In this document: piece by piece, positions 275 through 18,809 of the stretch
How the letters are laid out: every line of letters starts with the position of its first letter
How positions within the stretch are numbered: position 1 is the stretch's first letter
NCBI GenBank assembly: GCA_035527075.1
Contig: DATLBE010000007.1
Span: forward strand, 463 to 64,462
Origin: Nevskiaceae bacterium
GTDB lineage: Bacteria; Patescibacteriota; Microgenomatia; PFEM01
Length of the DNA: 64,000 nt
Direction: 5' to 3'
Position numbers and translations under genes: made by a program
Notes under the pieces: model-generated
Database searches by the model: none
Told to the model about the DNA's origin: nothing
Seen by the model: the letters and a program-made list of their open reading frames with translations, nothing else

Positions 275-442
275 AACTCACCTCCTTCCCTTTACCAGCA
301 GGCAGGAGATAAATAAAAACTGCCCTTTCGGGCAGCCAAACACTGAATTTCAATTATCTAGATTAAAACAAATTATAAAGTAAAAGTCAAATTTAACCCT
401 TGATATCATTGTAATAATTTAGGTTGAAATGTAAACTTAAAA

Positions 443-1402: not shown

Positions 1403-1553
1403 GGGCGACGAACATAGCAAGATCCTAGACTTTCGAAAAAGCCGGAAGTATCTACTACGCCGTCTACTTGATAGAAGAGAATAAGGAGTTTTTCAAAAAG
1501 TATCTCAAGAAGGCAAAAATGAAAGTAAAGTTTGTTAGATCGAAAAAACAAAT

Positions 1554-2654
1554 ATGAAAAAATTGCGGACAGGAAAAACAAAAAGTATTTTACTCAGTTC
1601 TGTTGACTCGGCACTACTAGCAGTTGAAGTGTACAACAAGCCTAGAACAACCTTTCGACAACAAAACTATATAACTTTAATGGTGATGGCTTGGACAAGG
1701 TTGCTTCAGTCATATTTTTACCAGGAGATAGGTGATAAATATTACTACAAAAAAAAGAATGGCAGATACGAGAGGATTAATGGCGAGAGAAAGGCCTGGG
1801 ATTTAGCAAAGTGCGTTAAGGAGTTTAACAAACTCAAATCTGATAAGCTCTCGAACGGAGTCCGTGCAAACCTCAAATTTATTATTGGATTAAGACATAA
1901 AATTGAACACCGTTATGTTTCATCAAAGGAACTTGAAGCAAGTGTGTTTGGAGAATGTCAGGCCTGTCTCTACAACTATGAGAATTTGTTGGTTGATCTT
2001 TATGGAGGCGATTACGCATTGAACGAGGCTCTCTCCTTTTCCTTACAATTTTCTCAGTTCAGAACAGAGGAACAACAGAGAGCCAGTAAAACATTATTGT
2101 CTAAAGACATTAAAGCAATAAAACAGTATGTTGACAAATTTAGAACCAGTCTTGACGATAACGTTTTCAACTCTCAAGAATACAGCATCAAACTAATTCA
2201 GATACCGAAAATTAGTAATACAAACAGATCAGATTTGGCTATAGAGTTTGTTCGTTGGGATGAACTAAACGAAGAAGATCGAAAAAACTACCAGAAAGTG
2301 ACAACAATAATCAAAGATAAAGTTGTGAAGAGAGATGTTATAAGTGCTGGAAAACTACTCCCATCTGCTGTTTTAAACGAAATAAAAAAGAACACTAAAA
2401 AGTCATTGACTCACTACGACCACAAATGCCTTTATTTTATTTTCGATATTCGTCCGGTTAGCGGAGAAGACAAAGATCCCGTCGATACTGAAACTGAATA
2501 TTGTTTATATGATGAAGTACATAAAGACTACCTTTATGAGGATAAATGGGTAGACTTTCTCTCACAACTGATCGCTGGCATGAAGTTAACAAGAAAAAAG
2601 TGGAAAAAATACTATAGGGAAAGAAAAAAATTAGATATTTCTAATTATAAATGA
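1554..2654 (+). CDS. Hypothetical protein with an HEPN-like Rx4H motif (possible RNase or abortive-infection-type defence protein)
   Basis: 366 aa with no housekeeping signature. Contains GLRHKIEHRY (R-x4-H, the HEPN catalytic motif) in a predicted helical context. The N-terminal LLSSVDSALLAVEVYNKP resembles DUF3644/Abi-like HEPN families. Confidence 0.4.
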   Translation: MKKLRTGKTKSILLSSVDSALLAVEVYNKPRTTFRQQNYITLMVMAWTRLLQSYFYQEIGDKYYYKKKNGRYERINGERKAWDLAKCVKEFNKLKSDKLSNGVRANLKFIIGLRHKIEHRYVSSKELEASVFGECQACLYNYENLLVDLYGGDYALNEALSFSLQFSQFRTEEQQRASKTLLSKDIKAIKQYVDKFRTSLDDNVFNSQEYSIKLIQIPKISNTNRSDLAIEFVRWDELNEEDRKNYQKVTTIIKDKVVKRDVISAGKLLPSAVLNEIKKNTKKSLTHYDHKCLYFIFDIRPVSGEDKDPVDTETEYCLYDEVHKDYLYEDKWVDFLSQLIAGMKLTRKKWKKYYRERKKLDISNYK

Positions 2655-2761
2655 CCTCTTTTTTATACTGTCTCATTTGTCTCATTTAGCCTAAAATGAT
2701 ATACTCAGAATGGTCGAGTTATAGGGACTAACAGGTCCCAGACCGACCTGCTCAGCAAGGT

Positions 2762-3457
2762 ATGAAAATCTCTACAGTCTCGGCATTGATGAATTCGCGG
2801 ATATTTATTAGCGAGTGGGTGCAGATTTGCTCAACACTTTTCTTGGGAGCAATGGCCATTTATGCTCCGTATATAGCTGAAAAACTTAAACGTAAGTATT
2901 TCCAACCAGGATTAAGAATCAAATTTAAGTTGGCAACTCCAGGCTGTCATCAAACACGGAGGGTTGGGAAAAACTCAGACTTTCCTGTCTATTATTTTAG
3001 ATTCTTAGTCGAAAATTTTGGCAAAACCCAAGCTGAAGAGTGTGAAGTTTTTTTAGAAAAGATTTTTAAAGAGAACGGTGCGGGTGAGATGGTAGAAAAT
3101 AAAAAAATTTCACCTGTAAATTTAAAATGGTCGGGAATAAGAGATCCGTATAAAAGAACTATTCAACCAGAAAAAGAAATGTACTGCGACCTAGGTAAAG
3201 TTCAACACCCAGATGATTATTATCAATTTATATATAAAGGGTTTTCTAAGAGAGATGAGGCAACTAATAAGTTTATCCTTGAACTTCCCGAAAAGTACTA
3301 TTCGCAGCAAGACTGCTTAACTCCAGGAAAATATAAGATAAAAATATCTGTTTATAGCAATAATGCTAAAAAAGTTTCCCGCCAATTTTTATTGTCGTGG
3401 ACTGGAAAGTGGAAAGATGAAGAGTCGGATATGTTTAATGAATTGGTCATCAGTTAA
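2762..3457 (+). CDS. Hypothetical protein
   Basis: 231-aa ORF with a hydrophobic N-terminal segment and no recognisable family. It is flanked by a ~21-bp imperfect direct repeat (2737-2760 and 3487-3510). Confidence 0.5.
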   Translation: MKISTVSALMNSRIFISEWVQICSTLFLGAMAIYAPYIAEKLKRKYFQPGLRIKFKLATPGCHQTRRVGKNSDFPVYYFRFLVENFGKTQAEECEVFLEKIFKENGAGEMVENKKISPVNLKWSGIRDPYKRTIQPEKEMYCDLGKVQHPDDYYQFIYKGFSKRDEATNKFILELPEKYYSQQDCLTPGKYKIKISVYSNNAKKVSRQFLLSWTGKWKDEESDMFNELVIS

Positions 3458-3585
3458 GCAGAGAATAATTTATAAGATTCAAAAGTTCTAGACTGACCTG
3501 CTTAGTACCGCGCAACTCAGAGAAAATAAACTATGGGAGTAAATAACTAACCTTACCATTTACCCCAAAGGCATACCTAGAGAAA

Positions 3586-3963
3586 ATGTCGAAAAAAATT
3601 CCACAAAGATATTACTTAAAGCCCTACCTTCTCTTTCTATTTAAGGAGATCCCCGGCATAATCCAAATATTTTCCCTACCTACAATATTTGGAATATTAT
3701 TAAATCGCCCTTGGTGGGCTTATTTAGTGGGTTGTTTAACGGGTTTCTTTTTGGGCAGTTATTTAATTGCAAGGACTCTTGTTTATTTGTGTAACTTAAT
3801 GGTTACTAGAGACCCATTTTTAAATATAAAAATTAATTCCCGGGAAGAATTCATAGAATATGTTAAGTGGTGGATAGTCTATATTTTAATAACTGGCCTC
3901 TTTTTTGCTCTGCTAAGCGCTGTGACTATTCTCCAGATAAACTATAATTTTTCTAGGAATTGA
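3586..3963 (+). CDS. Small integral membrane protein (about 3 TM helices), hypothetical
   Basis: 125 aa with three strongly hydrophobic stretches. Confidence 0.5.
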   Translation: MSKKIPQRYYLKPYLLFLFKEIPGIIQIFSLPTIFGILLNRPWWAYLVGCLTGFFLGSYLIARTLVYLCNLMVTRDPFLNIKINSREEFIEYVKWWIVYILITGLFFALLSAVTILQINYNFSRN

Positions 3964-3987
3964 TAACAAATTCTATTTTATAAAAAA

Positions 3988-4007
3988 GGTTCGAACTCTG
4001 TCCACGG
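3988..4007 (+). repeat. Repeat family A, partial inverted copy (GGTTCGAACTCTGTCCACGG)
   Basis: Matches the reverse complement of the GTGGACGAAGTTCGAAC core found at 5917, 8717 and 12819. Lies 25 nt 3' of ORF 3586..3963. Confidence 0.6.
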
Positions 4008-4166
4008 TTCGCAGCAAGCTTGAGCACCCCAAGTGACCGAGATCTCTTAAAAAAACTGATAATCCTTGCAAATCTCGCTGTTTTCTCTTCGAAGATTCGA
4101 ACCAGCTATTTTCTCTAAAATAAGTTTCAACGTAGTTTACTAAACCCTGCAAAATATCTTATAACA

Positions 4167-4195
4167 TTGATAATCTGCCTCTAAGTTGATAAAAT
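4167..4195 (+). promoter_or_regulatory. Sigma70-like promoter for ORF 4204..4806, possibly producing a leaderless mRNA
   Basis: TTGATA (4167-4172), 17-nt spacer, TAAAAT (4190-4195). The ATG at 4204 is about 8 nt downstream of the -10 box. Confidence 0.4.
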
Positions 4196-4203
4196 ATTGA
4201 TGT

Positions 4204-4806
4204 ATGATAGAGGGACCAAGGCGACCAAGGACAATCGATTTTACAGACGAAAGCAAGACTTATGTTAAGGTAAGAGACTTAACTTTTGAGATTGAACATT
4301 CGCCTTGGGGTTCTATAGAAGAATATGGGGTTGAGGGTGTTTACTCTCTTGCATGGAAATTAAAAGATGTTGATGAAACAGTAATGGATGGGGCTTTGAT
4401 TACAATTGAATCTGGTTGTCGAACTCTTATTCAACATGTCGTGTCAGAAACAACTTTTTGCGAAGTCCCTCAGACAGGCATATTAACTTTTTTGGCTGTT
4501 GATCCTGAGGGAAATCTCCACATCCATCATTTTGATTCGCAAGAAGAAGATGCTAGTAGCTACATGATGGAAGTTAAAAAAGGCTGGACAATGTGTTGGT
4601 TCGCCTCTAAAAATCAAATTATACCAGCTCACGTATTAGAGCTTAGAGAACCAGGATTTAAAACGTCAGAGTTAGCTACGGTTGAATTTGGTGTGGCGGA
4701 ATTCAATGGGCACCCAATTCCACCAAAACTATGGGAAACTATAAAGCGTCTAATGGAGGAAGACTACGATCCTAAACTACTGTGGGACTGGGTTCGAAAA
4801 TCGTGA
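4204..4806 (+). CDS. Hypothetical protein
   Basis: 200-aa ORF, soluble, no recognisable motif. Confidence 0.5.
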   Translation: MIEGPRRPRTIDFTDESKTYVKVRDLTFEIEHSPWGSIEEYGVEGVYSLAWKLKDVDETVMDGALITIESGCRTLIQHVVSETTFCEVPQTGILTFLAVDPEGNLHIHHFDSQEEDASSYMMEVKKGWTMCWFASKNQIIPAHVLELREPGFKTSELATVEFGVAEFNGHPIPPKLWETIKRLMEEDYDPKLLWDWVRKS

Positions 4807-5047
4807 GCTAGCCTCTGCAAATAAGAAGTACTAACAAAGTTCACTAGCCCCCCTTTCAATGTTTGCCATAAACGAACTTTATCACTTTGCGAAAAAAATG
4901 TTAAATCACGGGCATGTTATATTAAATGCCAACTAGCTCGAACGATGGTATGTTTTCCGACGAATTGACTGGGTAACTGAGCTTGAATATCCAGAGTTTA
5001 CATCAAAGCAAGTAAATTCTTTTTTAGAGATACAATTAGAGTAATTT

Positions 5048-5524
5048 TTATAACTCTAGTAACCTGACGATAAAAAGATTAAGAATCGCCGCAAAGCTGA
5101 CCCACAAAATATAAGGAATGAGCAACAACCCAGCAATTCTAGAAATTTTATAAAAGCTCAAAGTAGCCAGCAAGATAAAAACCCAGAGGGCAATGATTTC
5201 CAAGAAAGCATATTGGGGCAAGCGCAAGCCAAAAAAGATGATTGACCATAAGGAATTAAGAACCAGTTGAATGGCAAAGAATATCAAAGCAGTTTTGACT
5301 TCTTTCTTCCCAATCCCCTTATTCCAGATTAAATAGGCAGCAATACCCATCAAGGTATAAAGAAGAAACCAAACAGGAGCAAATAACCAATTAGGAGGGC
5401 TAAAACTTGGTTTTTCAAGCCCAGCATACCAAGAAGGGATTGCAGGAGTGGTAAATATTAACCCCACCAGGCCTGCTCCCTGGCAAATCAAAACAGCTAA
5501 AATTAAGTTAAAAATCCTTTTCAT
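5048..5524 (-). CDS. tspO: TspO/MBR family tryptophan-rich sensory protein
   Basis: 158 aa with 5 TM helices. The Trp-rich motifs (WYAGLEKPSFSPPNWLFAPVWFLLYTLMGIAAYLIW) are characteristic of TspO/MBR. Confidence 0.85.
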   Translation of the reverse strand: MKRIFNLILAVLICQGAGLVGLIFTTPAIPSWYAGLEKPSFSPPNWLFAPVWFLLYTLMGIAAYLIWNKGIGKKEVKTALIFFAIQLVLNSLWSIIFFGLRLPQYAFLEIIALWVFILLATLSFYKISRIAGLLLIPYILWVSFAAILNLFIVRLLEL

Positions 5525-5765
5525 ATTTATTTTTCAAAATTTCAATCAAATCCTCTCTGTACAAACCCTCTAATTTTGGAATCAAATCTAACTCCAAATA
5601 ATCTTTAATTCCATGAACCACCCTTGGATTCACAAATTCTTCAAAATATTTTCCAGCTTCCTTAAAACCCTTCCCAAAATCCAAAAAAAATCGAGTGCTT
5701 TTGTCTTCCAACAAAATTTTATTTCCCCCAATTTCATTTATTCCTCCATAAAAAGTCAGTTTCAT
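5508..5765 (-). pseudogene. N-terminal fragment of an MBL-fold metallo-hydrolase (RNase J / beta-CASP-like) truncated before the HxHxDH motif
   Basis: MKLTFYGGINEIGGNKILLEDKSTRFFLDFGKGF matches the first beta-strands of MBL-fold hydrolases. The ORF stops after 85 aa, overlapping the tspO start, before any metal-binding motif. Confidence 0.4.
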
Positions 5766-5907
5766 AATAAAATATTCTCAAATTCTTAAGAATATTGGAA
5801 TGTTTATATTATTTGGCGATAAATGCTTTGTCTAAAATTGACGCAAATTCTCATATCTATATTCTACCAAATCAAAAAAGTCCAGGAAACTGGGCTTCTG
5901 AAACTAA

Positions 5908-5936
5908 CTCCCCATCGTGGACGAAGTTCGAACTAG
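5908..5936 (+). repeat. Repeat family A copy (CTCCCCATCGTGGACGAAGTTCGAACTAG)
   Basis: Near-identical to 8701-8735 and 12797-12840. Contains the palindromic TTCGAA and a tRNA T-arm-like GTTCGAAC motif. Lies immediately 3' of ORF 5953..6495. Confidence 0.8.
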
Positions 5937-5952
5937 TTTGAGTTTTTGATTT

Positions 5953-6495
5953 CTAAAGCCCAACTTTTGGAACATACGGCTGTAATCTATAAACCGGTAT
6001 ATTATTTTCTTTAAGCCAAGTTGTAAATTTTTCATCTATATCATCAGAAGGGCTTTCTAGGAAATTTGGTTGAACAATTAATAAAAGCTTGGCTTTTTTC
6101 ATTGTAAGAGCAAGTAGCACATATTCTGGATAAACCTCGTCAAGAATGATTAATCCTTTAAATCGAACCAAGTCAGGATAAGACAAGCCGTCATGGCCAG
6201 AAAATCTGTCTTGTCTTCTGGGTTCATGATAAGCGATTTCAATTTGATTAGCTCTCATAAAAACACAGTCAGAGAATTGTTGGTTTTCAGGTTCTGTTAA
6301 GATTTTATGCCTTAAAATTCTGCCAAAAGTTGATTTGCCAGAGGCGTTTTCATCAGCGGTAAGAACTACTACAGAACTGTTCCTTAGAAGTTCTAAAACA
6401 TCTTCAACTTCTTGAGTTCTTAAACTAAGTTTATCTTCAAGAATAGGATGGCCTAAAGAATCTCTAATAACTGGGTCGAATTCTATTTTTGGCAT
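5953..6495 (-). CDS. Hypothetical protein with a deviant P-loop (ASGKST) and hhhhDE Walker-B-like motif
   Basis: VVVLTADENASGKSTFGRIL and LIILDEV suggest a small NTPase-like fold. No family assignment is possible. Confidence 0.4.
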   Translation of the reverse strand: MPKIEFDPVIRDSLGHPILEDKLSLRTQEVEDVLELLRNSSVVVLTADENASGKSTFGRILRHKILTEPENQQFSDCVFMRANQIEIAYHEPRRQDRFSGHDGLSYPDLVRFKGLIILDEVYPEYVLLALTMKKAKLLLIVQPNFLESPSDDIDEKFTTWLKENNIPVYRLQPYVPKVGL

Positions 6496-6724
6496 ACAGA
6501 GGTATTATAGCAAAAAACTATTTAAGTTACAAGACATTTGGCTCTTAAATGCTCAGCGCCGCTTTTAAAAAAAGGAAGGAGATAATCAAGCAGTTATCTT
6601 AAAACCAAAATCCGTGGCTCCCTAGTCCTAGGATTAATCTAACTGAAATTATTAAGGCTTTTCAGACAGTAGCAGTAGTCGAACAAACAAAAGAAAGATT
6701 GAGGCAAATAAGAAAATTTTAAGT

Positions 6725-7174
6725 TTAAGGTCTCTCGAAATAAGTTTCGATATAATCTCCCTCTTGGGCAACAACAACCATATCTGTTTTTTTATCATAA
6801 ACGCCGTGGGTTATTAAATAGTCGCCAACCCTAATCGTACCCGTATGGAAATTTAATCGAATTTTTCCCATTTCCCTATCTCCTACGGGAGAAGGTGGGT
6901 AAGCAGTATAAGTGACATTTACAAAAATACCACTGTCTTTTTTAATTTTAAAAACAAACTTCCTTGGTGTGTCCAAAAGTCCTTCTGGAGTTGTATCACC
7001 TCCACTGACTACATATCCAAAAACTGCAGTAACAACTTTATCCAACATGTTTTCCTCTTCAATAATAATCGGGAAGGGTGTGGGTTGCTCCCTAGTAATG
7101 GGAAGTTCTAAATCTTTTCTTAATTCAGGCTTCAGCTGTAAACTAGCAACCACCCCAACCACTAAAGCAAACAT
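6725..7174 (-). CDS. Hypothetical secreted or membrane-anchored protein
   Basis: 149 aa with an N-terminal hydrophobic helix (MFALVVGVVASLQL). Confidence 0.45.
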   Translation of the reverse strand: MFALVVGVVASLQLKPELRKDLELPITREQPTPFPIIIEEENMLDKVVTAVFGYVVSGGDTTPEGLLDTPRKFVFKIKKDSGIFVNVTYTAYPPSPVGDREMGKIRLNFHTGTIRVGDYLITHGVYDKKTDMVVVAQEGDYIETYFERP

Positions 7175-7273
7175 AACGAATACCAGAATTGAAGCTCAAA
7201 AAGAAACATTTCTTTTCATACTTTTCATTTTAACATAATGAAAACAAGGTTCGTGGTTAGATTAAAACAAATT

Positions 7274-7385
7274 AGCTCGAAGGGCGTAACCTTAATATAA
7301 CCAAGAGTTTTTCCCATATTATCAAGGTTTTTGAAGATTTCAGGTTTGTGCAGGATTTACGAGAGGAGATAGCAAAAGTAAAGCC
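7274..7385 (+). repeat. Repeat family B copy 1 (~110 bp). The reverse strand has a promoter-like TTGATA-N19-TTATAT.
   Basis: About 90% identical to 9321-9436 and about 75% to 12434-12545. The conserved core is CTCGAAGGGCGTAACCTTAATATAACCAAGAGTTTTTCCCATATTATCAA. Confidence 0.8.
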
Positions 7386-7444
7386 TTGCTTAGTTTTAGC
7401 TACTTAGTTATCTATTTTTAGAGAGAACAAGTTGCTACCGCTCT

Positions 7445-8617
7445 TTACAAAATTTCCGTGAAATATTTTCTAATCACTTCTTTCTCTGCGTCTGAGTATC
7501 CTTTAATATATACACCCGGCATTCCAGGCACTTCCCCCTCAGCAAAGTATCCAAGCATAAACCCAGATACTTTGCCTTTTCCTTTTTCAAAAACTATCTT
7601 AAAGGCTCTCGCAAGCTCTTCTTCACTCATCCACCCCTCTTCTAAAACATCCACTATACCAGCCCCCTCTACAAAGAACCTGTCAAACACGCCAAATTCG
7701 TCAATAATAACTCCTTTGCAGCCATCCCTCTCTGCTCTGGCGAGCATATAATCTATAGCCCCTTCAACATGTTGTGAATAGCCTTCTAGTGTCAGTATGT
7801 CAGCCCACTGCAGCCGGTCCTTTGGCTCTAGACTTTCGCTTACTGGAAACAAAAGAGTAAGACCTATATAATCATATCCTGTGAACTCTCCCGGTGGCTC
7901 TTTAGCTATCCGAGCTATTGCTGTTTTATCAGGTGGTGAGCCGACTCCACCAAAGGACCAATAGATTTCACCATGATAAACTTTTTTAACTTTAGGAAGA
8001 ATCTCCTGTCCCCACTTGAAAACATCTACTGAAAGCACAGTCTGTGGCTCAGCTAGAGGAGCAAAAATTTCAACATCATGTTCTTCTGCAAATTCAGCCG
8101 CCTCAATAATCAGAGAGTTTAATTTTTCTAAATCTTTCTCTCCTAGCCTAGGCCTGGGTTTAGGGTAAAGGTTTGGGGTCAGCATAACTTTCATGTTGTT
8201 TTCTTGAGCAAGTCGAATGTTATCGAGTGCGTAAGACGTCTCTAAACGAACAACTGGATTGCCCTCCTCTTGAATAATTCCAATTGCTAAGGATGCAGTG
8301 TTCATTCCCAGGTCCTTCATCACCGGCATAATAGAAGCCAACCCACCCTTATCCAGCGCAGGCATCCAAGCTCCTTTGTAAATCACCTCTTTGGTAGCAA
8401 AAAAGTTTTTCCAAACAAAAAATCCTCCTATACCTAAGCCAATTAGAACTAATGAAATAATTAAAATCTTTATTATCAATCTCTTTTTGGGGTTTTTGGG
8501 TAGAGTTAGTTTGGGGGGTGTTTGGGGGATAATAGAGGGTTGTGGGTTTTGAGAAATATTCTTAACTTCAGGTTGTGTTTTCTGTGTGGTGGGAGCTTGT
8601 GGGATATTGACTTCCAT
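7445..8617 (-). CDS. Membrane-anchored protein with an extracytoplasmic TIM-barrel-like domain, possible glycoside hydrolase
   Basis: Pro/Gln/Thr-rich N-terminus, a single TM helix, then an alternating beta/alpha pattern with conserved acidic residues (IIDEFG, EG motifs). The family assignment is tentative. Confidence 0.35.
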   Translation of the reverse strand: MEVNIPQAPTTQKTQPEVKNISQNPQPSIIPQTPPKLTLPKNPKKRLIIKILIISLVLIGLGIGGFFVWKNFFATKEVIYKGAWMPALDKGGLASIMPVMKDLGMNTASLAIGIIQEEGNPVVRLETSYALDNIRLAQENNMKVMLTPNLYPKPRPRLGEKDLEKLNSLIIEAAEFAEEHDVEIFAPLAEPQTVLSVDVFKWGQEILPKVKKVYHGEIYWSFGGVGSPPDKTAIARIAKEPPGEFTGYDYIGLTLLFPVSESLEPKDRLQWADILTLEGYSQHVEGAIDYMLARAERDGCKGVIIDEFGVFDRFFVEGAGIVDVLEEGWMSEEELARAFKIVFEKGKGKVSGFMLGYFAEGEVPGMPGVYIKGYSDAEKEVIRKYFTEIL

Positions 8618-8700
8618 TAATTAAATTATAACATATTAGAATCCAGAACACGGAAAGTTCTAATAAAAACAAGTCAGCGAGGGGAGTTATATTAAGTACC

Positions 8701-8735
8701 GACTGGCTCCCCATCGTGGACGAAGTTCGGACTAC
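8701..8735 (+). repeat. Repeat family A copy (GACTGGCTCCCCATCGTGGACGAAGTTCGGACTAC)
   Basis: Aligns with 5908-5936 and 12797-12840. Lies immediately 3' of ORF 8764..9255. Confidence 0.8.
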
Positions 8736-8763
8736 TTTTAAGATTAAATTCGTAAATAAAGCC

Positions 8764-9255
8764 TTATTTTAAAGGTTTCATAATAATTAAAGAACGCTCT
8801 TTATATCCTTGCAAGGCATAAAACTGACGTGCCAGTTTATTAGGAGCAAAAACATCTAAACGGGCAATGTCACAAGCTTGAGATTTAAAGTAATCTTCCA
8901 GCTTAGCCAAAAGCCTTTTTCCTATTCCTTTACTTCTATATTGTGGGGCAACATATAATTCATTAATTATCCCTGGTTTTGTCTGGATTGCCTCCATTTG
9001 TTCTTCTTTATCTTGACTGCCAATATAGCCACCAATAAAACCAATTAACCTATCTTTAATATGTGCTACATAAACTTTTCCTTGCTCCTCCCTTGCCTCT
9101 TTTAGCATTTTTTCTGTAAAATATTTTGCTCCGCCGCCCTTAAATTGAGTTTTATGCATATTATCTATTTTCTCAAGATATGCACCAAATTCAGACATTA
9201 AACTAACAATCTGTTTCCAGTCATTCTGCTGATACTCTCCAATAACAATTTTCAT
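8764..9255 (-). CDS. GNAT family N-acetyltransferase
   Basis: 163 aa. The acetyl-CoA binding motif YRSKGIGKRLL (Q/R-x-x-G-x-G/A) and overall GNAT topology are present. Confidence 0.8.
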   Translation of the reverse strand: MKIVIGEYQQNDWKQIVSLMSEFGAYLEKIDNMHKTQFKGGGAKYFTEKMLKEAREEQGKVYVAHIKDRLIGFIGGYIGSQDKEEQMEAIQTKPGIINELYVAPQYRSKGIGKRLLAKLEDYFKSQACDIARLDVFAPNKLARQFYALQGYKERSLIIMKPLK

Positions 9256-9320
9256 TTTTTATCCCTCTTATTAATTCTACCACAAACCAAAAAATCCCAG
9301 AAAATCGGGCTTTCTGAAGC

Positions 9321-9436
9321 TAGCTCGAAGGGCGTAACCTTAATATAACCAAGAGTTTTCCCCATATTATCAAGGTATTTGAAGATTTCAGGTTTGTGCA
9401 GGAATTGAGAGAGGAAATAGAAAAAATGAAGATTGT
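9321..9436 (+). repeat. Repeat family B copy 2
   Basis: About 90% identical to 7274-7385 over about 100 bp. Confidence 0.8.
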
Positions 9437-9448
9437 AAACTCTTTAAG

Positions 9449-10222
9449 TTAAGATAGCTCTGCAACCATGACTGGAGGAAGATAAGCCTTAATTAAACCA
9501 CCAACAGCCCCTTGGGTTAATTGACCTGCCAACCACTTAGAAGCTCTTTTTATTTGTCTAAAAATTTCAGTAATTTTACTTGGTTCCTTATTGTCTTTTT
9601 TAAGCTCATTTTCTAAACTACCTAAAAGTTCTATGGCTTTTTCTTGACTAGATGACTCTATGTTCTGCGGAATTTGTTCTCTTATTTTGTTAAATGAATC
9701 AGTAATGTCACCAATGTTAATGTTTGCATCTCCTGTTTGGATTGGGCTACTATCTCCGCTTGTAATATTTTTTTGGCCAACATAGTCACCACCATCAGCA
9801 CTAACTTTGCCGGTACCTGCTATATTAATATTTCCTTGCATATAAACGGTTCCACCTCCACCAGGCTGTCCTGCTTTACCTGGCTCACCAAATTTCAAAA
9901 TTGGCTCAGGCTCCTTTTTATCTAAACTACTAAAATCATATCTTTTATATTCTGCAACCTTACGTGTTACAAAGACTTTAATCTCGTAAGCTGCTTTTTT
10001 TCTAATCTCTCGATTGCCTTCCGTTGGGGTAATACTTTTGCTTAGCTGGACGAATTCTTGGTAATCACCTTCATCTAGATTCTTTAATACAGCAGCTGTG
10101 TCTGCTAACCAATTTTGTGTTACGTCTTGTCTAGGTAGATGATACAGTTGCACAACATCTAACTTTTCAAAAAGTTTAACCAACTCTTCAACTAGTTTTT
10201 TCTTTTTTTCTGATGGCTTCAT
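9449..10222 (-). CDS. Hypothetical protein with a Gly-rich beta-repeat middle region
   Basis: 257 aa. The central GEPGKAGQPGGGGTVYMQGNINIAGTGKV...GDANINIGDI looks like a bactofilin/beta-helix-like repeat. No confident family. Confidence 0.45.
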   Translation of the reverse strand: MKPSEKKKKLVEELVKLFEKLDVVQLYHLPRQDVTQNWLADTAAVLKNLDEGDYQEFVQLSKSITPTEGNREIRKKAAYEIKVFVTRKVAEYKRYDFSSLDKKEPEPILKFGEPGKAGQPGGGGTVYMQGNINIAGTGKVSADGGDYVGQKNITSGDSSPIQTGDANINIGDITDSFNKIREQIPQNIESSSQEKAIELLGSLENELKKDNKEPSKITEIFRQIKRASKWLAGQLTQGAVGGLIKAYLPPVMVAELS

Positions 10223-10286
10223 AGAACTATGTAATTAATCCAACGTGGTCAGATTAAGAAAATTCGGCTCCGCCTGATGGGCAAGG

Positions 10287-10685
10287 TCAGCGCCTGTTTT
10301 GTTTATCTACACTCCCAAATCTCAAATAATCTTTATTTGCATGATGTTGGTTCCCATAATGCTCTTCCCAAGTTCCCCAACCATGATAATAACTAGTTAT
10401 AGTCTCATCCTTAAAGTTCACTACATGTAAATCTCCATCATTCTGAAAATCTTTGGTATCATAAAAAGCCGTTTCTACTGCCATTTGACTCCCGGAAGGT
10501 TGAGTAATAACACATCCGAGAAGTTCGTTTCTTGGAGTTTCCCTCTCATTAATTCCACAATCCTTCAATTCTTGAAGGTATGTACCTGGCATTGGCAAGG
10601 TAGCTAAGGAACCCATACTTATCCGTCTTTTCGAAAACGAATCTAATTGGTCCTTTGTTAATTTTTTTGTTCTTGGTTTCTTCAT
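10287..10685 (-). CDS. Hypothetical protein
   Basis: 132-aa ORF, basic N-terminus, His/Trp-rich C-terminus. Confidence 0.45.
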   Translation of the reverse strand: MKKPRTKKLTKDQLDSFSKRRISMGSLATLPMPGTYLQELKDCGINERETPRNELLGCVITQPSGSQMAVETAFYDTKDFQNDGDLHVVNFKDETITSYYHGWGTWEEHYGNQHHANKDYLRFGSVDKQNRR

Positions 10686-10710
10686 ATTTGGGTATAATAA
10701 GTTCCAACTG

Positions 10711-10758
10711 GCTCCCCCTAGTAGACTTATTCCGCAACCAAAAGATTGAGTTTGGTTT
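10711..10758 (+). repeat. Repeat family C copy 1 (GCTCCCCCTAGTAGACTTATTCCGCAACCAAAAGATTGAGTTTGG)
   Basis: About 90% identical to 12318-12366. Shares the AGTTCCAACTGGCTCCCC 5' module with family A copies at 8701 and 12797. A related GGGACGATTTTAGAAC lies at 10809-10826. Confidence 0.75.
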
Positions 10759-10832
10759 CAGTTTGCAAGAAGTCCAACAATTATTTTTCAGTCTCATGAA
10801 TAAATCCAATGGGACGATTTTAGAACTTTTTG

Positions 10833-11177
10833 TCACAAAACAAGCTCATCTTCCTTCATTCCTGCAAGAAGTTGTGCATGTATATGATTAACGCTCTGCT
10901 TACCACCACAATGGAATCCCCAAGTGTACCCTTTACCCTTAATAGATGAAGTTTTGATAACTTTTTCAACCACGTTACCAATTTTTTGTAAAAGTGTTGG
11001 TTCTTTTTCCATCATCTCAGAAAAATCAGAGTAATGAGTTTTAGGCGTAATTAATAAGTGTGTTTTTGCTCGAGGATTATTATCGGCAAAAACCACAATG
11101 TCTTCGTCTTCGTACAAAATATCTTCTTTTTTCTCCTTTGCTGCAATTTTACAAAACACACAGTCATTCATAATCAA
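10833..11177 (-). CDS. HIT (histidine triad) family protein
   Basis: The N-terminal CVFCKI and C-terminal VNHIHAQLL (HxHxQ variant of the HIT motif) match HIT/Hint-like nucleotide hydrolases and transferases. Confidence 0.7.
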   Translation of the reverse strand: MIMNDCVFCKIAAKEKKEDILYEDEDIVVFADNNPRAKTHLLITPKTHYSDFSEMMEKEPTLLQKIGNVVEKVIKTSSIKGKGYTWGFHCGGKQSVNHIHAQLLAGMKEDELVL

Positions 11178-11361
11178 AGTATACTAAATTTTTGAGGTTA
11201 ATTTCAAATAACGTAAGAGATAGAGCTAGCTCGCCCTCCCCCGTAAGGTCACTACTCGAACCGAAGGCTGGTTGAAAGACTATCTATTAGGAGAAAGTAT
11301 AGCTGAATTTCAGTTCACCTTCTGATACCCCCACCCCTCGACTCACTATATTTTGCTCGCC

Positions 11362-11379
11362 GGATGGGACGATTTTCGA
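11362..11379 (+). repeat. Short repeat GGGACGATTTTCGAAC, related to family A core and to 10809-10826
   Basis: 16 of 17 identical to 10810-10826. Resembles GTGGACGAAGTTCGAAC. Confidence 0.6.
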
Positions 11380-11481
11380 ACATGTACCACTTGTTGGTAA
11401 GCATGCATTACACTCACACCTATTCCTTGTCGGTAAAATATCCTATTTTTCCTTGATATTGGACAAAAAGCAATATAGAAT

Positions 11482-12273
11482 ATGTTTGTGACTCCAGATA
11501 GGCTAAATCCAGCTGACATCCGAGAAAAACTTCAGACTCGCCCAATTATACAACCCCCCCTTATTGTTCCTGTTTTAAATGGTTTTCAACTTGATGGTTG
11601 GATAACCCCAGTTGGAGCAGTTCCAGGAAAAGGAAGGAGGGTAGTTGGTCAAGAAAATCTAAGTAAATTTCTTGCCTATCATTGTAATTCAACAGGATTC
11701 GAGCTTAAAGATGTTATTGCCGGGGAAGATGATGATTTGCAATCTTTTGTAATTAAATGTGGGAATCATCAGGGGTGTGTTGAACTAACAGGAAACAACA
11801 ATATTTTGGATAAAGAGTACCAGTTTAAAGGAGTGTCAGGTGGCCGGGTGGCCATTGGATTGCAATTCCTGTTGGCTAAATATGCAAGAAGCTCACAGGA
11901 CAGCTTGCGCTTCCCCTACCTGGGTACTAGTTTATCTCGAGGCAAAGTAAGTTATTTTCCTATGGATTTAAGAATACCTCTATTTCTGGCAGAAGTGCAA
12001 CAAGCATTAACTACCGCTGACTATCAAGCCTCTTTAATTCAAAAAGCCCTAGTAATGGCTCAGAGATTAGATTTAACTATAAACGCTCGAGATGGACTTG
12101 TTTTCACAAACGGATTGCTTAAAAAAGCAGCTGTTGTGGAGGGAAATGCATGTCAATATGATCTTGTTAGCTCGGGAGAATACGCTGGACATAATGTTGA
12201 CACTCCCAACCAAGCCATACTCCTTCATTGGGTTTGTGGGACTTTTATCAGGGATTTGACTGATTCACTTTAA
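11482..12273 (+). CDS. Hypothetical protein
   Basis: 263-aa ORF, no recognisable family. Confidence 0.5.
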   Translation: MFVTPDRLNPADIREKLQTRPIIQPPLIVPVLNGFQLDGWITPVGAVPGKGRRVVGQENLSKFLAYHCNSTGFELKDVIAGEDDDLQSFVIKCGNHQGCVELTGNNNILDKEYQFKGVSGGRVAIGLQFLLAKYARSSQDSLRFPYLGTSLSRGKVSYFPMDLRIPLFLAEVQQALTTADYQASLIQKALVMAQRLDLTINARDGLVFTNGLLKKAAVVEGNACQYDLVSSGEYAGHNVDTPNQAILLHWVCGTFIRDLTDSL

Positions 12274-12317
12274 TCTAGGTTTGAATATTTAGCATATTCA
12301 CCCTTCAGTGAACACGT

Positions 12318-12366
12318 GCTCCCCCTAGTTGACTTATTCCGCAACCAAAAATTAGAGTTTGATTAT
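12318..12366 (+). repeat. Repeat family C copy 2
   Basis: Aligns with 10711-10758 (CTCCCCCTAGTTGACTTATTCCGCAACCAAAAATTAGAGTTTGATT). Confidence 0.75.
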
Positions 12367-12433
12367 AGCCTGAATGATGTTAAATTATTCTACGCAAGCC
12401 TAAAACTTCAAAAGATGGATAACTCTAACTTTA

Positions 12434-12545
12434 CCTCGAAGGGTGTAACTTTAATATAACCAAGCATTTTCCCCATATTATCAAAGTTTTTGATGAACTT
12501 ATATTTGTTAGCCAATTAAAAGAAGAAATGGGGAAAGTAAAATAC
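12434..12545 (+). repeat. Repeat family B copy 3 (more diverged)
   Basis: The conserved core CCTCGAAGGGTGTAACTTTAATATAACCAAGCATTTTCCCCATATTATCAAAG matches copies 1 and 2. Confidence 0.7.
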
Positions 12546-12547
12546 GT

Positions 12548-12766
12548 TTAAAATTTTGGAACTTTTAACCCAACACAGTTAAAAGTTCCACCAGAATCGT
12601 CTGCAGGCCCCGAAGGCCCACCAGTTTTAATAATTTTTCCAATACAAGTACAAGTTGGTTTTCCCCCAATACCTTCGAACACTGACCAAGTTCCGCAAGA
12701 ACTTAAAAAAGACCAAAGAAATAACAAGAGTGCCAAAACAAACAAACTCACTAATATTTTCTTCAT
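12548..12766 (-). CDS. Small secreted Cys-containing protein, hypothetical
   Basis: 72 aa, an N-terminal signal-like hydrophobic segment, and 5 Cys in the mature part. Confidence 0.4.
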   Translation of the reverse strand: MKKILVSLFVLALLLFLWSFLSSCGTWSVFEGIGGKPTCTCIGKIIKTGGPSGPADDSGGTFNCVGLKVPKF

Positions 12767-12796
12767 ATTCTTAATATATCACATTTAGATATATTA

Positions 12797-12840
12797 AGTT
12801 CCAACTGGCTCCCCATCGTGGACGATGTTAGAACTACTAT
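12797..12840 (+). repeat. Repeat family A copy (AAGTTCCAACTGGCTCCCCATCGTGGACGATGTTAGAACTACTAT)
   Basis: Aligns with 5908-5936 and 8701-8735. Abuts the stop codon of ORF 12837..13181. Confidence 0.8.
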
Positions 12841-13181
12841 TTACCAGATTTACCCGTAGACCAAATCAAAAACAATCTCTTTTTAAACCCACCCCGCTTT
12901 TTTCGTTTCTGCTTTTGATATTCTTCGACCTGACGAAAACTTAATTTATAATGAGAAGCAATAGACTTAACCAACTCCAAAACATCAGCCAGTTCGTTCA
13001 GAAGCGACTTCTTTGGGGCATCCACCAATTCTTTTGATTCTTCCACCAATTTTTTCTTTAATTCTTTTTCAAATTCTATCTCACCCAAGATTCTGGTTTC
13101 GTATTCCCCTTTGTTAGCCTCGATAAATTCAGGGATTCTATCTCTGATGAGCTTGCGATGGTAATATCTCTTTTTTGTCAT
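12837..13181 (-). CDS. MazG-like nucleotide pyrophosphohydrolase (PRA-PH/house-cleaning NTPase family)
   Basis: N-terminal KLIRDRIPEFIE and the later ELADVLELV helix are signatures of the MazG/phosphoribosyl-ATP pyrophosphohydrolase-like all-alpha NTP pyrophosphatases. Confidence 0.65.
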   Translation of the reverse strand: MTKKRYYHRKLIRDRIPEFIEANKGEYETRILGEIEFEKELKKKLVEESKELVDAPKKSLLNELADVLELVKSIASHYKLSFRQVEEYQKQKRKKRGGFKKRLFLIWSTGKSGK

Positions 13182-13293
13182 ACCCCCATTTTACCAAAAC
13201 ACCCCTTCTAACAAAAACACAAATCAAAAAAGCCCATGAAACTGGGCAGAAATCACTTGAATATAAAAATATAAAAGCTATACTCTGCGATGG

Positions 13294-13734
13294 ATGGAAA
13301 AAGAACAAAAACTATCTAGACCCCCTGTGGTTCAAAAACACCCATTTGGGTGTGGTGTGGCCTGCACGGCTTTTATCTTAAATTTAAGCTACCAAGAAAC
13401 ATTGAAACTTTTTGGAAACGGCAAAGAAAAAGCCTGCAATTTTGGATTTTCCTGTGAAGAAATAGCTGAAGCCTTAAATAATTCAGGAGGACATTTTGAG
13501 CATCGACATATCAAAGACGAAATTAAAGGAAAAATATATCAAGACAATACAATTGTTTTCATTAAAAGATCTAAACAGTACCCTACTGGACATTACCTCT
13601 GCAGATTCAAAGGTTTATGGATGGATCCATGGATAAATTTTCCTCAAAATCAAAATATTAAAGAAGCTAAAGCGGGCTTTAGAATTAAATTACCAGATAA
13701 AGCTATCTACGCCATTCTCCAAAAGGAATATTAG
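13294..13734 (+). CDS. Putative papain-like/C39-like cysteine peptidase
   Basis: QKHPFGCGVACTAFIL (Gln-x-x-x-Cys-Gly-x-Ala-Cys) with a downstream His (TGHYLC) resembles peptidase C39-type catalytic residues. Tentative. Confidence 0.4.
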   Translation: MEKEQKLSRPPVVQKHPFGCGVACTAFILNLSYQETLKLFGNGKEKACNFGFSCEEIAEALNNSGGHFEHRHIKDEIKGKIYQDNTIVFIKRSKQYPTGHYLCRFKGLWMDPWINFPQNQNIKEAKAGFRIKLPDKAIYAILQKEY

Positions 13735-13760
13735 CTCCCCGTATTGGACTCGAACCAGAC
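13732..13760 (+). repeat. Family A-like, tRNA-3'-end-like element (TAGCTCCCCGTATTGGACTCGAACCAGAC)
   Basis: Shares the GCTCCCC...GGAC..TCGAAC pattern. A T-arm-like GGACTCGAACC is followed by an anticodon-arm-like hairpin, but no complete tRNA can be folded. Confidence 0.5.
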
Positions 13761-13992
13761 AAATTCAGTCTGAAAAAGGCCAAAGCATCAGTTATAAGAA
13801 ATTTAAGGGAGCTGAAGCTGTCTTAATCTAGCCGATATAAAGTGTCTGGGAGCCAGCGCGTTTTTATTAGAACTTTTAGCCCTATTTTCCGTTTCCCCGG
13901 CCTTAATTTGGAGCTAAGAAATTTATGTTGGTGGTTGCAAAGCCGTTTAACTTAGGACAAAATATCAGTAAAAGAAAAAGAGGTGGTAAATA

Positions 13993-14109
13993 ATGGCAAA
14001 AACAAAAACTTCTACCTACGGTAAAAAGAAGCAGAAAATTGTACCGGTTCGCCGTTACAAAAAAGGTGGTAAGTGGGTTAAACAGCATAGGCGCTCTACC
14101 CCAAATTAA
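13993..14109 (+). CDS. Unannotated small basic protein (38 aa), hypothetical
   Basis: ATG at 13993 is preceded by a strong SD (GAGGTGG at 13981-13987). Translation is MAKTKTSTYGKKKQKIVPVRRYKKGGKWVKQHRRSTPN. It falls below the ORF-track length cutoff. It is more plausible than the antisense ORF 13903..14088. Confidence 0.4.
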   Translation: MAKTKTSTYGKKKQKIVPVRRYKKGGKWVKQHRRSTPN

Positions 14110-14399
14110 TAATAAATGCTTATTTTTGAAAAAGACTATGGATATGTTAGAACCTCATATTTAGAGCTTATTGAGGGTTTGATAATCCCAGAATATTGTT
14201 TCAAAACCTTGGATTGATTTTAGAGTATCTTTTACCAGATGTGCTAAATCAGTTAAGAAGGGTGTCAAGTAGCAAAACAAGTGACAGACTAGGTATAATT
14301 ATAGCCCATAGTTTGACAAATAGATAAAGAAGTGGTATTATACAAACAATATGAGCACCGCCTCTGTCGTAAGACAAGGGCGGTTTTTTGTTGTATAAT

Positions 14400-14613
14400 A
14401 TGGTAAACATGGCTGAAAAAAGAAAAAAAAGAACGAGTAGCTATTTATATTGACGGAAGTAATTTTTACAATTATTTAAAAGATATATTCTTTTAGGAAA
14501 AACTAAAAAAGACAGATTATTACTTGTTATTTTTACATTGAAAAACAGAAAAGTAAGAATCATTTCAGCAAGAGATATTAATAGAAAAGAGGTGAAACTT
14601 TATGAAAAAACAG
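14400..14613 (+). pseudogene. Degraded brnT-like (DUF497) toxin gene remnant
   Basis: The frame ending at 14613 encodes ...DYLLVIFTLKNRKVRIISARDINRKEVKLYEKTV, matching the conserved RIISAR C-terminus of BrnT toxins and overlapping the brnA start. The N-terminal half is disrupted by stops and frameshifts around an A8 homopolymer at 14412-14419. Confidence 0.35.
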
Positions 14614-14862
14614 TTTAAATTACCTAAATTTAAAAATGAAGACCAGGAAAGAAAATTCTGGGCTAAAGTTGATTTAGCTGAATATTTTGAGCCAGCTGGT
14701 TTTCAGCCAGTTTCTTTTCCTAATCTTAAACCAACAACTCGATCAATTTCGATTCGTTTACCTGAGTATTTGATTGATAGAGTCAAAGAACAGGCTAATG
14801 AAATTAATGTTCCTTATCAGTCTTTAATCAAGGGTTATTTAAAAAAGGCGATTTTTGGATAG
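14602..14862 (+). CDS. BrnA-like (CopG/RHH) antitoxin
   Basis: 86 aa. The SISIRLPEYLIDRVKEQANEINVPYQSLIKGYLKK matches the BrnA antitoxin family ribbon-helix-helix C-terminal region. Confidence 0.6.
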   Translation: MKKQFKLPKFKNEDQERKFWAKVDLAEYFEPAGFQPVSFPNLKPTTRSISIRLPEYLIDRVKEQANEINVPYQSLIKGYLKKAIFG

Positions 14863-14946
14863 GGGGACTCTTTTTACTAATGAAAACCAGATAGCAATGA
14901 TCGGTAAATTTTTTGAAAATTTAAAGGCCAAAGTTTCTAGCTAAAT

Positions 14947-15726: not shown

Positions 15727-15860
15727 AAAGTCGTTTTTTTTCCTAACTTTTGACTTGTTTACGTTTCTTCTCCCTTATCTATAAGGGAAAGGGGTAGTAA
15801 TTATCAATATATTTAAGGCTAAATTTAATGTTTTTTTGTCCCAGAGCTCTAGGACAATTT

Positions 15861-18512: not shown

Positions 18513-18587
18513 AATTTACCTTTTTGGGCAGTATTATGAGGCAGGATTAGTTATTAGTATACTACATGGAATAAAGAATCGAAACAC

Positions 18588-18809
18588 CTATTCATTTCTT
18601 GCATGACAAGGCTGCTTTCTTTTTTTTAAAATTTTAATATTCAAATAAAAGTTAACCAACGAAAGGGTAATTAATATTGCTAACAAAGCGATAAGAAGCT
18701 GCCCAAGTTCGGTGCAATAAATTACAGTTTTGGGTCGAATAAGAAAATACAGACCCAGCCCTGAGAGAATTACACCGACGCAAAGCAGTTTCAATGTCAA
18801 CCTACTCAT
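18588..18809 (-). CDS. Small two-TM membrane protein, hypothetical
   Basis: 73 aa with two hydrophobic helices. Confidence 0.35.
   Translation of the reverse strand: MSRLTLKLLCVGVILSGLGLYFLIRPKTVIYCTELGQLLIALLAILITLSLVNFYLNIKILKKRKQPCHARNE

Follow-up and report, generated by a model that had tools for sequence, protein, structure and literature searches.

The described systems closest to the locus analysed here are integrons, modules bordered by dif-type sites, and mobile elements that target transfer RNA (tRNA) genes. Integrons, in particular sedentary chromosomal ones such as the Vibrio cholerae repeat (VCR) arrays of Vibrio, are one-directional arrays of cassettes of unrelated function that mostly hold a single open reading frame (ORF); a conserved site with constant ends and a variable centre lies at the 3' end of each cassette, a fixed insertion platform lies at one end of the array, and the content differs between close relatives. 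An intI gene lies beside such arrays, the platform is an attI site whose Pc promoter accompanies promoterless cassettes, and attC sites, by the criteria used here, are imperfect palindromes of 57–141 bp with an R'' box (RYYYAAC), an R' box (GTTRRRY) and extrahelical bases. IMEX elements at dif and the pdif modules of Acinetobacter plasmids are small cargo units that have no recombinase of their own and short conserved sites as borders, an enzyme encoded elsewhere presumably moving them; dif and pdif are XerC/XerD sites 28 bp long whose spacer is 6 bp, and successive pdif sites are in alternating orientation. In the tycheposons of Prochlorococcus, each later integration displaces the earlier ones inward, and partial tRNAs occur throughout the island (10.1101/2020.12.28.424599). 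Here, we analysed a 64,000-nt stretch (the window) of contig DATLBE010000007.1 (assembly GCA_035527075.1, labelled Nevskiaceae bacterium and placed by GTDB in the Patescibacteriota), and report a 32-nt tRNA-like motif, motif M, that recurs in it and in other genomes. With a probability of roughly 0.6, small mobile gene cassettes form an integron-like, site-specific array at 4.9–13.8 kb of the window, with recombination sites of tRNA origin as the joints.

An initial annotation of the window had described a cassette-like array punctuated at 2.65–14.1 kb by at least three sets of repeats (families A, B and C), which we checked by mechanical repeat finding, short-word BLAST and profile search (nhmmer). 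The full copies of family A placed at about 5908, 8701 and 12797 were recovered at 5906–5933, 8705–8732 and 12807–12834, with at most two mismatches to a 28-mer of which 0 copies are expected by chance. All three are on the minus strand (profile E = 1e-12 to 1e-14, given individually in Table 1, the weakest 2.5e-12), which is taken as gene orientation below, and all follow the stop codon of a gene in that same orientation, as had been claimed. Family A is motif M. Family B was confirmed at its three places as 111-nt copies (7273–7383, 9321–9431 and 12432–12542; identities 92% and 76%), and family C at its two (10711–10782 and 12318–12389; 78% identical overall, with a 33-nt core at 97%). A fourth repeat had been overlooked, a terminator-like hairpin (GCCCAGTTTCATGGGCTTTTTT) on the minus strand at 5868–5895, 9283–9310 and 13220–13247. 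The repeats are limited to about 4.9–13.8 kb, and neither short-word BLAST nor the profile search found a copy of any family at 14–64 kb. At 2.65–4.8 kb, the sole repeat-like feature is a 3' fragment of tRNA-Gln with conserved downstream DNA; this fragment had been taken for a partial inverted copy of family A at 3988–4007 behind a co-oriented ORF. The weaker relatives of family A (4925–4945, 10809–10826, 11362–11379 and 13732–13760) are individually non-significant (profile E = 2.4–9.6, or 0.9–9.6 over all the weaker relatives listed), and two of them become meaningful by context, at 10812–10834 as part of a long joint variant and at 13729–13760 through alignment with tRNA-Asn. The supposed relative of family C at 6608–6630 belongs to a diverged copy of family B.

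Read on the minus strand, motif M is 32 nt long with sharp edges, AACTAGT(C/T)CGAAC(A/T)TCGTCCACGATGGGGAGC. A scan for exact matches to CTCCCCATCGTGGACGAWGTT among species-representative (GTDB) genomes placed it at 7 loci, with 4 copies in three regions of the 615-kb chromosome OZ246397.1, and a 22-nt version placed it at 55 metagenome loci with flanks unrelated between loci; a profile search then counted 124 copies in 57 loci. The core of M is identical in hosts whose RpoD proteins are 66–94% identical, and M is better conserved than the hosts' own tRNA-Asn. No copy lies in the 50 kb of window core genes (~40 genes), and plasmid and phage collections gave no match. Five 17-mer matches in viral contigs were considered as a sign of viral origin and set aside as chance matches in GC-rich coding DNA; the degenerate M pattern gave none. 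The labels of two records look wrong, namely OZ246397.1 (L004, L008 and L009; 'Gammaproteobacteria') and DATKWK010000017.1 (L010; 'Bathyarchaeia'). Their arrays are the same as those in contigs that bear Patescibacteria or Saccharibacteria labels, and bacterial dnaG-rpoD is also present in L009.

Every copy of M lies on one strand in each of the 32 loci that hold at least two copies (67 intervals). Copies are spaced by 275–6301 bp with a median of 729 bp, so that the median unit of ~0.7 kb is like that of integrons, and one or two ORFs of at least 50 aa occupy 58 of the 67 intervals (one in 37, two in 21). Most ORFs are co-oriented with M (88 of 111, 79%) and, again as in integrons, a minority of 23 are reversed; the uniform strand of M in spite of these reversed ORFs shows that it tracks the orientation of the array and not of the individual gene. 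The typical layout is ORF-M-ORF-M, with seven units in 4 kb in L066 and L070. Joints commonly carry a predicted terminator and, behind it, a −10-like box that would serve the next gene, and the cargo is of mixed kinds: GNAT, TspO, a zinc-finger protein, an APH-type kinase, phospholipase D, a pyridoxal phosphate (PLP) decarboxylase, DUF3089 and BNR proteins. The repeat-spacer periodicity of ~60–70 bp of a CRISPR array was not found at these spacings, and the intervals hold ORFs.

Some of these arrays are anchored at a tRNA. In 10 loci (8 distinct), an intact tRNA-Asn(GTT) gene lies directly behind dnaG-rpoD and a co-directional array starts right after it. The tRNA-Asn 3' end reads ...CCGCCGGAGC (…CCGGAGC) and the end of motif M reads ...GATGGGGAGC (…GGGGAGC), the terminal GGAGC of M mimicking the last acceptor bases and the discriminator of tRNA-Asn. 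Both are followed by the same three types of trailer: CAGTTGGAACTTAATATA; TAGCTTCAGAAA with a GC hairpin and a T-run; and a TTGACT-N17-TATAAT promoter. In the window, the first type follows A2, A3 and C1 and the second, with its terminator, follows A1 and B2. The tRNA end and M are interchangeable as left neighbours of a cassette. Cassette c13 lies behind tRNA-Asn in L063 and behind M in L070, two loci that are 99.4% identical over 1189 bp until the homology stops 4 nt inside the L063 tRNA, where L070 has M; likewise, nt 1–127 of L021 are 100% identical to the DNA after the L046 tRNA-Asn, and the match stops inside the GGAG of M. Four unrelated sequences follow the last tRNA base in L007, L046, L063 and L066, whose tRNAs are 92–100% identical. 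The last 14 nt of M match the L043 tRNA-Asn end at 11 of 14 positions, and M as a whole is distinct and no copy of the neighbouring tRNA.

The other repeats of the window are not independent of M and are variants of one theme: every family is a joint whose end corresponds to the final bases of a tRNA acceptor arm (GAGC), M being the commonest and best conserved. M itself occurs in length variants that keep both ends and vary in the centre, which is 2 nt in the common form, 22–24 nt in the intermediate form and ~25 nt in the long form, and the long form contains a T-loop-like GGTTCGATT. Family C is the right part of the long variant at 10690–10834, and its right end (TGGTTGCAGAATAAGTCCTTTAGGGGGAGC) is identical at 22 of 30 positions to the variable-loop, T-arm and acceptor part of tRNA-Asn. 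The fragment at 13729–13760 keeps a canonical GGTTCGAGTCC T-loop, followed by ...ACGGGGAGC. Family B ends in ...GGTTACGCCCTTCGAGC, a junction of GAGC and trailer, and the same trailers stand behind family B in the window, L004, L007 and L043; this family too may derive from a tRNA. The suggestion that the repeat cores resemble tRNA T-arms and could be att scars thus gained support from the 10 arrays that begin at the tRNA-Asn 3' end and from the common trailers. Rfam gave no match at gathering thresholds or at E ≤ 10 in 2.5–14.5 kb, tRNA model included, and the joints are not functional tRNA genes.

Cassettes vary at motif M between loci. Of the internal alignment ends between loci, 143 of 259 lie within ~100 nt of M, with accumulations at both edges of M and where the terminator trailer ends. 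L033 and L058 have a cassette and its M in common at 99.6% identity and diverge exactly after GGGGAG, and the pairs L007/L046, L054/L065 and L039/L048 have M and the downstream DNA in common and diverge at the other edge of M. A 411-bp unit of L054 (promoter, 73-aa ORF and M) is missing from L065, with flanks 100% identical upstream and 87% downstream; the single site of L065, in which the junction falls inside M, joins the left half of one L054 site to the right half of the second. Cassette clusters c3, c4, c6, c7, c8, c13, c14 and c17 have different neighbours in different loci, while the flanks are constant, with dnaG-rpoD-tRNA on one side and a zinc-finger gene, a methyltransferase and a hydrolase on the other. 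No pair of loci differs by the motif alone, and the sole clean indel carries a gene. The comparison of related genomes that the initial annotation had called for thus gave repeat-bounded presence and absence of a cassette as well as reshuffled neighbours, and these, together with the same-strand arrays in more than 60 unrelated contigs, support its reading of a cassette array punctuated by recombination-site-like repeats.

Two side observations concern units of unusual form. In L040 (877–1035) and L010 (4262–4440), an M site and a family C end enclose ORF-less units of ~105 nt, which could be cassettes that are empty or non-coding, or else a small RNA that has gone unrecognised. L050 (Ga0209745_1002230, 11,139 bp), the only contig with a terminal overlap when circular cassettes were looked for, has an exact one of 99 nt, which is ambiguous but may mean that it is circular, and four M-like sites on one strand; its genes are all cargo (BNR, phosphoesterase, two DUF3089, phospholipase D and PLP decarboxylase). 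Possible readings of L050 are a circle of several cassettes that was excised, a plasmid in which no replication gene can be recognised, and an artefact of assembly.

We propose that, in the lineage with this system, the primary platform would be the 3' end of tRNA-Asn(GTT) downstream of dnaG-rpoD. A cassette, usually one ORF with its own promoter and terminator, would pass through a circular form and recombine through its M at a crossover predicted to fall at or beside the terminal GGAGC of the tRNA. The tRNA would be kept intact, and the newest cassette would come to lie next to it while older ones are displaced outward, the outcome being a one-directional array of tRNA, cassette, M, cassette, M in which M-by-M exchanges could then delete, add and reshuffle cassettes. 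The enzyme would act in trans, presumably as a dedicated recombinase encoded elsewhere. The copy in the window would be a secondary array, in part decayed, that lies within a type IV secretion island next to tRNA-Val and has three canonical M copies, longer or degenerate tRNA-Asn-like joints (C, B and 13729–13760) and two cassettes with reversed ORFs.

Among the alternatives, the one that survives best, though it is unlikely, holds that M is an RNA-level element, a tRNA-like mini-helix in the 3' untranslated region that insulates transcription units, for instance as an RNase P/Z processing or stability signal, and that ordinary homologous recombination between the conserved modules of M, terminator and promoter, following natural transformation or conjugation, gave rise to the cassette pattern, with no dedicated recombinase. 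In most cases a stop codon precedes M and an intrinsic terminator follows it, the place that a co-transcribed tRNA would occupy, its ends are tRNA-like (GGA-G-CCA/CTA), its trailers are those of tRNA-Asn, and the 79% co-orientation of ORFs with M and the failure to find a recombinase also agree with such an element; M plus its trailer would give RecA 30–80 nt of identity, and the L054/L065 breakpoint falls inside M. A site acting at the DNA level is nevertheless favoured, because M clusters in islands at a few loci per genome and is absent behind the ~40 core genes of the window, because it keeps the orientation of the array also beside ORFs that run the other way (23 of 111), because the tRNA-cassette and M-cassette junctions share only GGAGC on the left of the identical DNA, which is too short for homologous recombination, and because no polymorphism of the motif alone was seen. 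The lack of base-pair covariation and of any match to the tRNA covariance model at E ≤ 10 likewise argues against an RNA element.

All three length variants of M are predicted to fold into a hairpin with an outer stem CTAG-TCC/GGA-(G)-CTAG, which has one bulged G, and an inner stem CATCG/CGATG with a variable tip. In 84 distinct copies, 86% of cells are paired, compared with 34–53% in slid controls, and no measure exceeds shuffles. Such a hairpin is possible and unproven; what is conserved is the primary sequence. A hairpin followed by 7–9 nt and then a break point is also the layout recognised by HUH nucleases and relaxases, and an enzyme of this kind is a conceivable candidate.

A number of observations weigh against a dedicated site-specific system built on M. 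Most copies of M were found with an exact 21–22-nt pattern, which inflates its apparent conservation. The hairpin energies of the window copies and consensus variants are ordinary (z = −1.0 to −1.7), and the 84 copies show no covariation or compensatory changes, in a test limited by the exact-pattern ascertainment. No circular cassette junction was seen among the contigs. The crossover maps to two places, the terminal GGAGC (tRNA versus M) and the centre of M (L054/L065). M plus trailer offers 30–80 nt of near-identity, which is perhaps enough without a dedicated enzyme, and homologous exchange between these near-identical modules probably adds to the shuffling. The array in the window is itself atypical, as its start is not at tRNA-Asn and several of its joints are degenerate. 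In addition, the search for a recombinase across the window, the 9.5 kb beyond position 1 and the surroundings of arrays elsewhere found none, and since the enzyme was not found the mechanism is unproven. This search covered about 50 ORFs by Pfam, namely the window ORFs at 1–20.8 kb, the 9.5 kb upstream in L071 (precomputed) and ORFs flanking arrays in L010, L016, L050, L054, L063 and L070, and the rest by a coarse motif screen or by eye. When 445 ORFs were screened for motifs of tyrosine and serine recombinases, false positives alone were returned, and no transposase was seen. The initial annotation had likewise seen no integrase in the window.

Compared with integrons, the cassette arrays joined by M have the co-oriented, mostly single-ORF cassettes that vary between relatives (32 of 32 loci single-stranded; one ORF in 37 of 67 intervals). 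The traits that define an integron are missing: no intI was found beside them, their platform is the tRNA-Asn 3' end and not an attI with a Pc promoter, and many cassettes bring a terminator and a promoter instead of being promoterless. M also differs from attC. It is tRNA-derived, 32 nt long (~44 nt with pairing flanks) and without the R''/R' consensus, the best R''-like sequence being TCCGAAC (5 of 7) and most copies lacking GTTRRRY at the 3' boundary, and its bulged hairpin is without support from energy or covariation, so that the analogy with attC first drawn could not be upheld. Like IMEX elements and pdif modules, the cassettes are small cargo between short conserved sites, without a recombinase of their own. 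Unlike dif and pdif, M has no XerC/XerD layout and all its copies are direct repeats (sequences compared by reading only).

Tandem accretion is less probable still: integrase-bearing elements (phages, integrative elements or tycheposon-like elements) would have entered tRNA genes serially and decayed, leaving the repeats as passive att scars. Partial tRNA copies are expected on this account, and family C, 13729–13760 and the tRNA-Gln fragment at 3988–4010 fit it; serial integration at one tRNA with scattered partial tRNAs is documented for tycheposons (10.1101/2020.12.28.424599), and the array in the window lies in a mobile-looking type IV secretion island. The arrays share with tycheposons and other tRNA-targeting elements a target tRNA that stays intact and islands hypervariable between conserved flanks in which repeated integration at one site displaces older units; partial tRNA copies at unit borders may be a further likeness, in family C and at 13729–13760. 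An intact tRNA-Asn(GTT) heads the arrays of 10 loci, in line with insertion at the 3' part of a tRNA, and homology between genomes stops at the tRNA end or 4 nt inside it. However, M is no decaying local copy of a tRNA but a distinct 32-nt sequence that is identical across hosts with differing tRNA-Asn and RpoD, the units of ~0.3–2 kb hold one or two unrelated ORFs and no integrase fragments, and the same cassettes recur in different orders. Tycheposons, in contrast, are multi-gene elements with their own tyrosine recombinase whose border repeats copy the target tRNA, whereas here single genes without a recombinase are bordered by a motif of its own kind, with a conservation above that of the tRNA; the searches described above for IntI found no integrase beside the att site either. 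A selfish short repeat of the REP/RAYT, MITE (miniature inverted-repeat transposable element) or IS200/IS605-derived kind that inserts alone, leaving the genes between its copies immobile, would suit a short, partly palindromic, intergenic motif with strand-biased copies like those of single-strand transposases, but is very improbable, so that the MITE/REP reading offered initially is not supported, given copies that are clustered and not dispersed in the loci covered, no locus pair that differs by the motif alone, a sole clean indel that carries a gene, no terminal inverted repeats or target duplications, arrays that start at a tRNA 3' end and share its trailers, and no transposase seen.

A wider claim would be that the Patescibacteria, or candidate phyla radiation (CPR), possess their own gene-capture system, an integron analogue of independent origin with a tRNA-Asn platform, a 32-nt tRNA-derived site, a recombinase encoded elsewhere and possibly not of the IntI type, and arrays copied onto conjugative islands; we hold this tentatively, at slightly short of even odds. 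A cassette system behind tRNA-Asn in many ultra-small (Patescibacteria/CPR-type) bacteria has apparently gone undescribed so far, and full-text literature, of incomplete coverage, gave no description of integron, attC or tRNA-Asn cassette arrays in CPR/Patescibacteria. How ultra-small symbionts with minimal genomes acquire genes is poorly understood, and a dedicated cassette platform behind a housekeeping tRNA, if real, would give them a major way of taking up accessory genes; the cargo seen includes acetyltransferases, TspO, HIT and MazG hydrolases, kinases, phospholipase D and peptidases. It would also mean that the layout of integrons originated at least twice, in this case from an integration site in a tRNA. 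In metagenomes, the 32-nt motif offers a handle for cataloguing this mobile gene pool, and it can serve as a bait for the enzyme; such arrays break assemblies, and may as a result be under-represented in binned genomes.

The joints and cargo of the array in the window are collected in Table 1.

Table 1. Joints, trailers, tRNA-derived remnants and cargo ORFs of the array, in window coordinates.
Feature	Position	Strand	Remarks
tRNA-Gln 3' fragment (3988–4010) and conserved downstream DNA	3988–4121	+	separate tRNA-derived scar, left edge of variable region
Degenerate joint, ...TTCGAGC end and TAGTTGGCATTTAATATAAC trailer	4916–4945	-	downstream of TspO; non-significant alone
A1 trailer, terminator type, TTAGTTTCAGAA + GCCCAGTTTCCTGGAC + T-run	5866–5900	-	same module behind genuine tRNA-Asn genes elsewhere
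Motif M copy A1 (cassette joint)	5901–5944	-	nhmmer E = 7e-14; 25 nt after stop of ORF 5953–6495
Diverged family B relic	6608–6720	-	79% identical to L062 379–499
Family B1 joint, ends ...GGTTACGCCCTTCGAGC/TAA	7270–7383	-	conserved 36-codon open frame on opposite strand
A2 trailer, type CCAGTyGGwACTTAATATAAC	8685–8705	-	same form as tRNA-Asn trailer in L007, L041, L061
Motif M copy A2	8702–8741	-	E = 1.6e-13; 37 nt after stop of GNAT gene
Family B2 joint (9320–9431), then TAGCTTCAGAAA and terminator hairpin (9283–9319)	9283–9431	-	trailer as after tRNA-Asn and M elsewhere
Trailer CCAGTTGGAACTTATTATA of long joint variant (C1)	10690–10710	-	
Long joint variant	10690–10834	-	M-like left half 10812–10834, variable centre, family C1 right part 10711–10782 ending CTACTAGGGGGAGC
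Weak relic of M left half, GTTCGAAAATCGTCCCATCC	11362–11381	-	E = 5.8, weak
Family C2 joint	12311–12428	-	right end GGTTGCGGAATAAGTCAACTAGGGGGAGC = degenerate tRNA-Asn 3' half
Family B3 joint	12424–12545	-	most diverged of joints B1–B3
A3 end and trailer, GGAGCCAGTTGGAACTTAATATATC	12788–12812	-	25/25 identical to last 7 nt of tRNA-Asn and 18 nt of trailer in L041/L061
Motif M copy A3	12803–12841	-	E = 2.5e-12; 8 nt after stop of MazG-like gene
Third terminator-type trailer hairpin	13220–13247	-	upstream of MazG-like gene
Near-native tRNA 3' fragment, TCTGGTTCGAGTCCAATACGGGGAGCTAA	13729–13760	-	aligns with tRNA-Asn T-arm and acceptor 3' strand; no 5' half; not called as tRNA
Remnant of M right end, GGGAGCCAG	13841–13856	+	head-to-head with tRNA-like fragment 13729–13760
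Cargo span	5048–13734		
TspO	5048–5524		
ORF, 85 aa	5508–5765	-	
ORF, 180 aa	5953–6495	-	
ORF, 149 aa	6725–7174	-	
ORF, 390 aa	7445–8617	-	
GNAT	8764–9255	-	
ORF, 257 aa	9449–10222	-	
ORF, 132 aa	10287–10685	-	
HIT	10833–11177	-	
ORF, 263 aa	11482–12273	+	
ORF, 72 aa	12548–12766	-	
MazG-like	12837–13181	-	
ORF, 146 aa	13294–13734	+	

On the strand opposite to family B, an open frame of 36–42 codons (LEGRNLNITKSFPHIIKVFEDFRFVQELREEIEKMK) always starts exactly at the joint, both in the window (7276–7383, 9324–9449 and 12435–12548, plus strand) and in L004, L007, L010, L043, L052 and L059. It is conserved at the amino-acid level, with differences most frequent at codon position 3, then 1, then 2, and may reflect a micro-protein, a relic of a split gene or a constraint at the nucleotide level. 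Family B was also considered as a fragment of a larger gene, such as a split integrase, and rejected; its database relatives are three ORFs of 72–73 aa with unrelated N-termini. The promoter TTGATA-N19-TTATAT initially read in family B is doubtful, its spacer lying outside the 16–18 nt of the scan, which found 30 promoter-like sites where 27 are expected, and in B2 a terminator comes directly after the joint.

The only tRNA called in the window by ARAGORN is tRNA-Val(cac) at 19292–19370 on the minus strand. It was tried as the source of the repeats and rejected, its 3' end (…GGTTCGAATCCAGGCACGACCA) being unlike M. Between it and position 1 lie genes for a VirD4-like coupling ATPase (15861–18512), a Replic_Relax protein (14947–15726) and a CopG antitoxin (14602–14862), as well as a repeat-rich region and DUF3644 and SNase genes (Pfam). 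Beyond position 1, contigs identical to the window (L001 and L071) carry genes for pilin, TrbL, PrgI-like, TraC-like and VirB4-like proteins and M23 and C39 peptidases, with polysaccharide genes outward of the peptidases; the type IV secretion genes lie at L071 3941–9832 (~6 kb). Since secretion genes are present on both sides of it, the array lies inside a type IV secretion island of ~25 kb beside tRNA-Val (window 1–19290 and the ~6 kb upstream), in which no recombinase or integrase was seen. The rest of the window (20.8–64 kb) is a cell-division and cell-wall gene cluster with glycosyltransferases, judged by eye from N-terminal sequences and gene order. One contig identical to the window breaks within the array.

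At the left end of the cargo, the 85-aa ORF overlaps the start of TspO and has no Pfam match; its N-terminus (MKLTFYGGINEIGGNKILLED...) is, we presume, like the start of an RNase J-type protein of the metallo-beta-lactamase fold, and the ORF may be a truncated gene fragment. Further left, the tRNA-Gln fragment corresponds to the stretch between T-loop and 3' end of the tRNA-Gln(ctg) of L016, with a 5-nt insertion and the 5' half missing, and is trailed by ~110 nt of conserved DNA; the whole resembles a separate scar of the att type on the left border of the variable region. At the right end, the 302 bp after the M remnant (13848–14149) are 93% identical to L016 2559–2858, which there is the DNA behind an M copy, and they contain a small, very basic ORF on the plus strand (13994–14110). 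In L016 this segment adjoins the tRNA-Gln region, which in the window is 9.7 kb off and inverted, and the layout of window and L016 around 13729–13856 suggests an inversion or an insertion between oppositely oriented sites.

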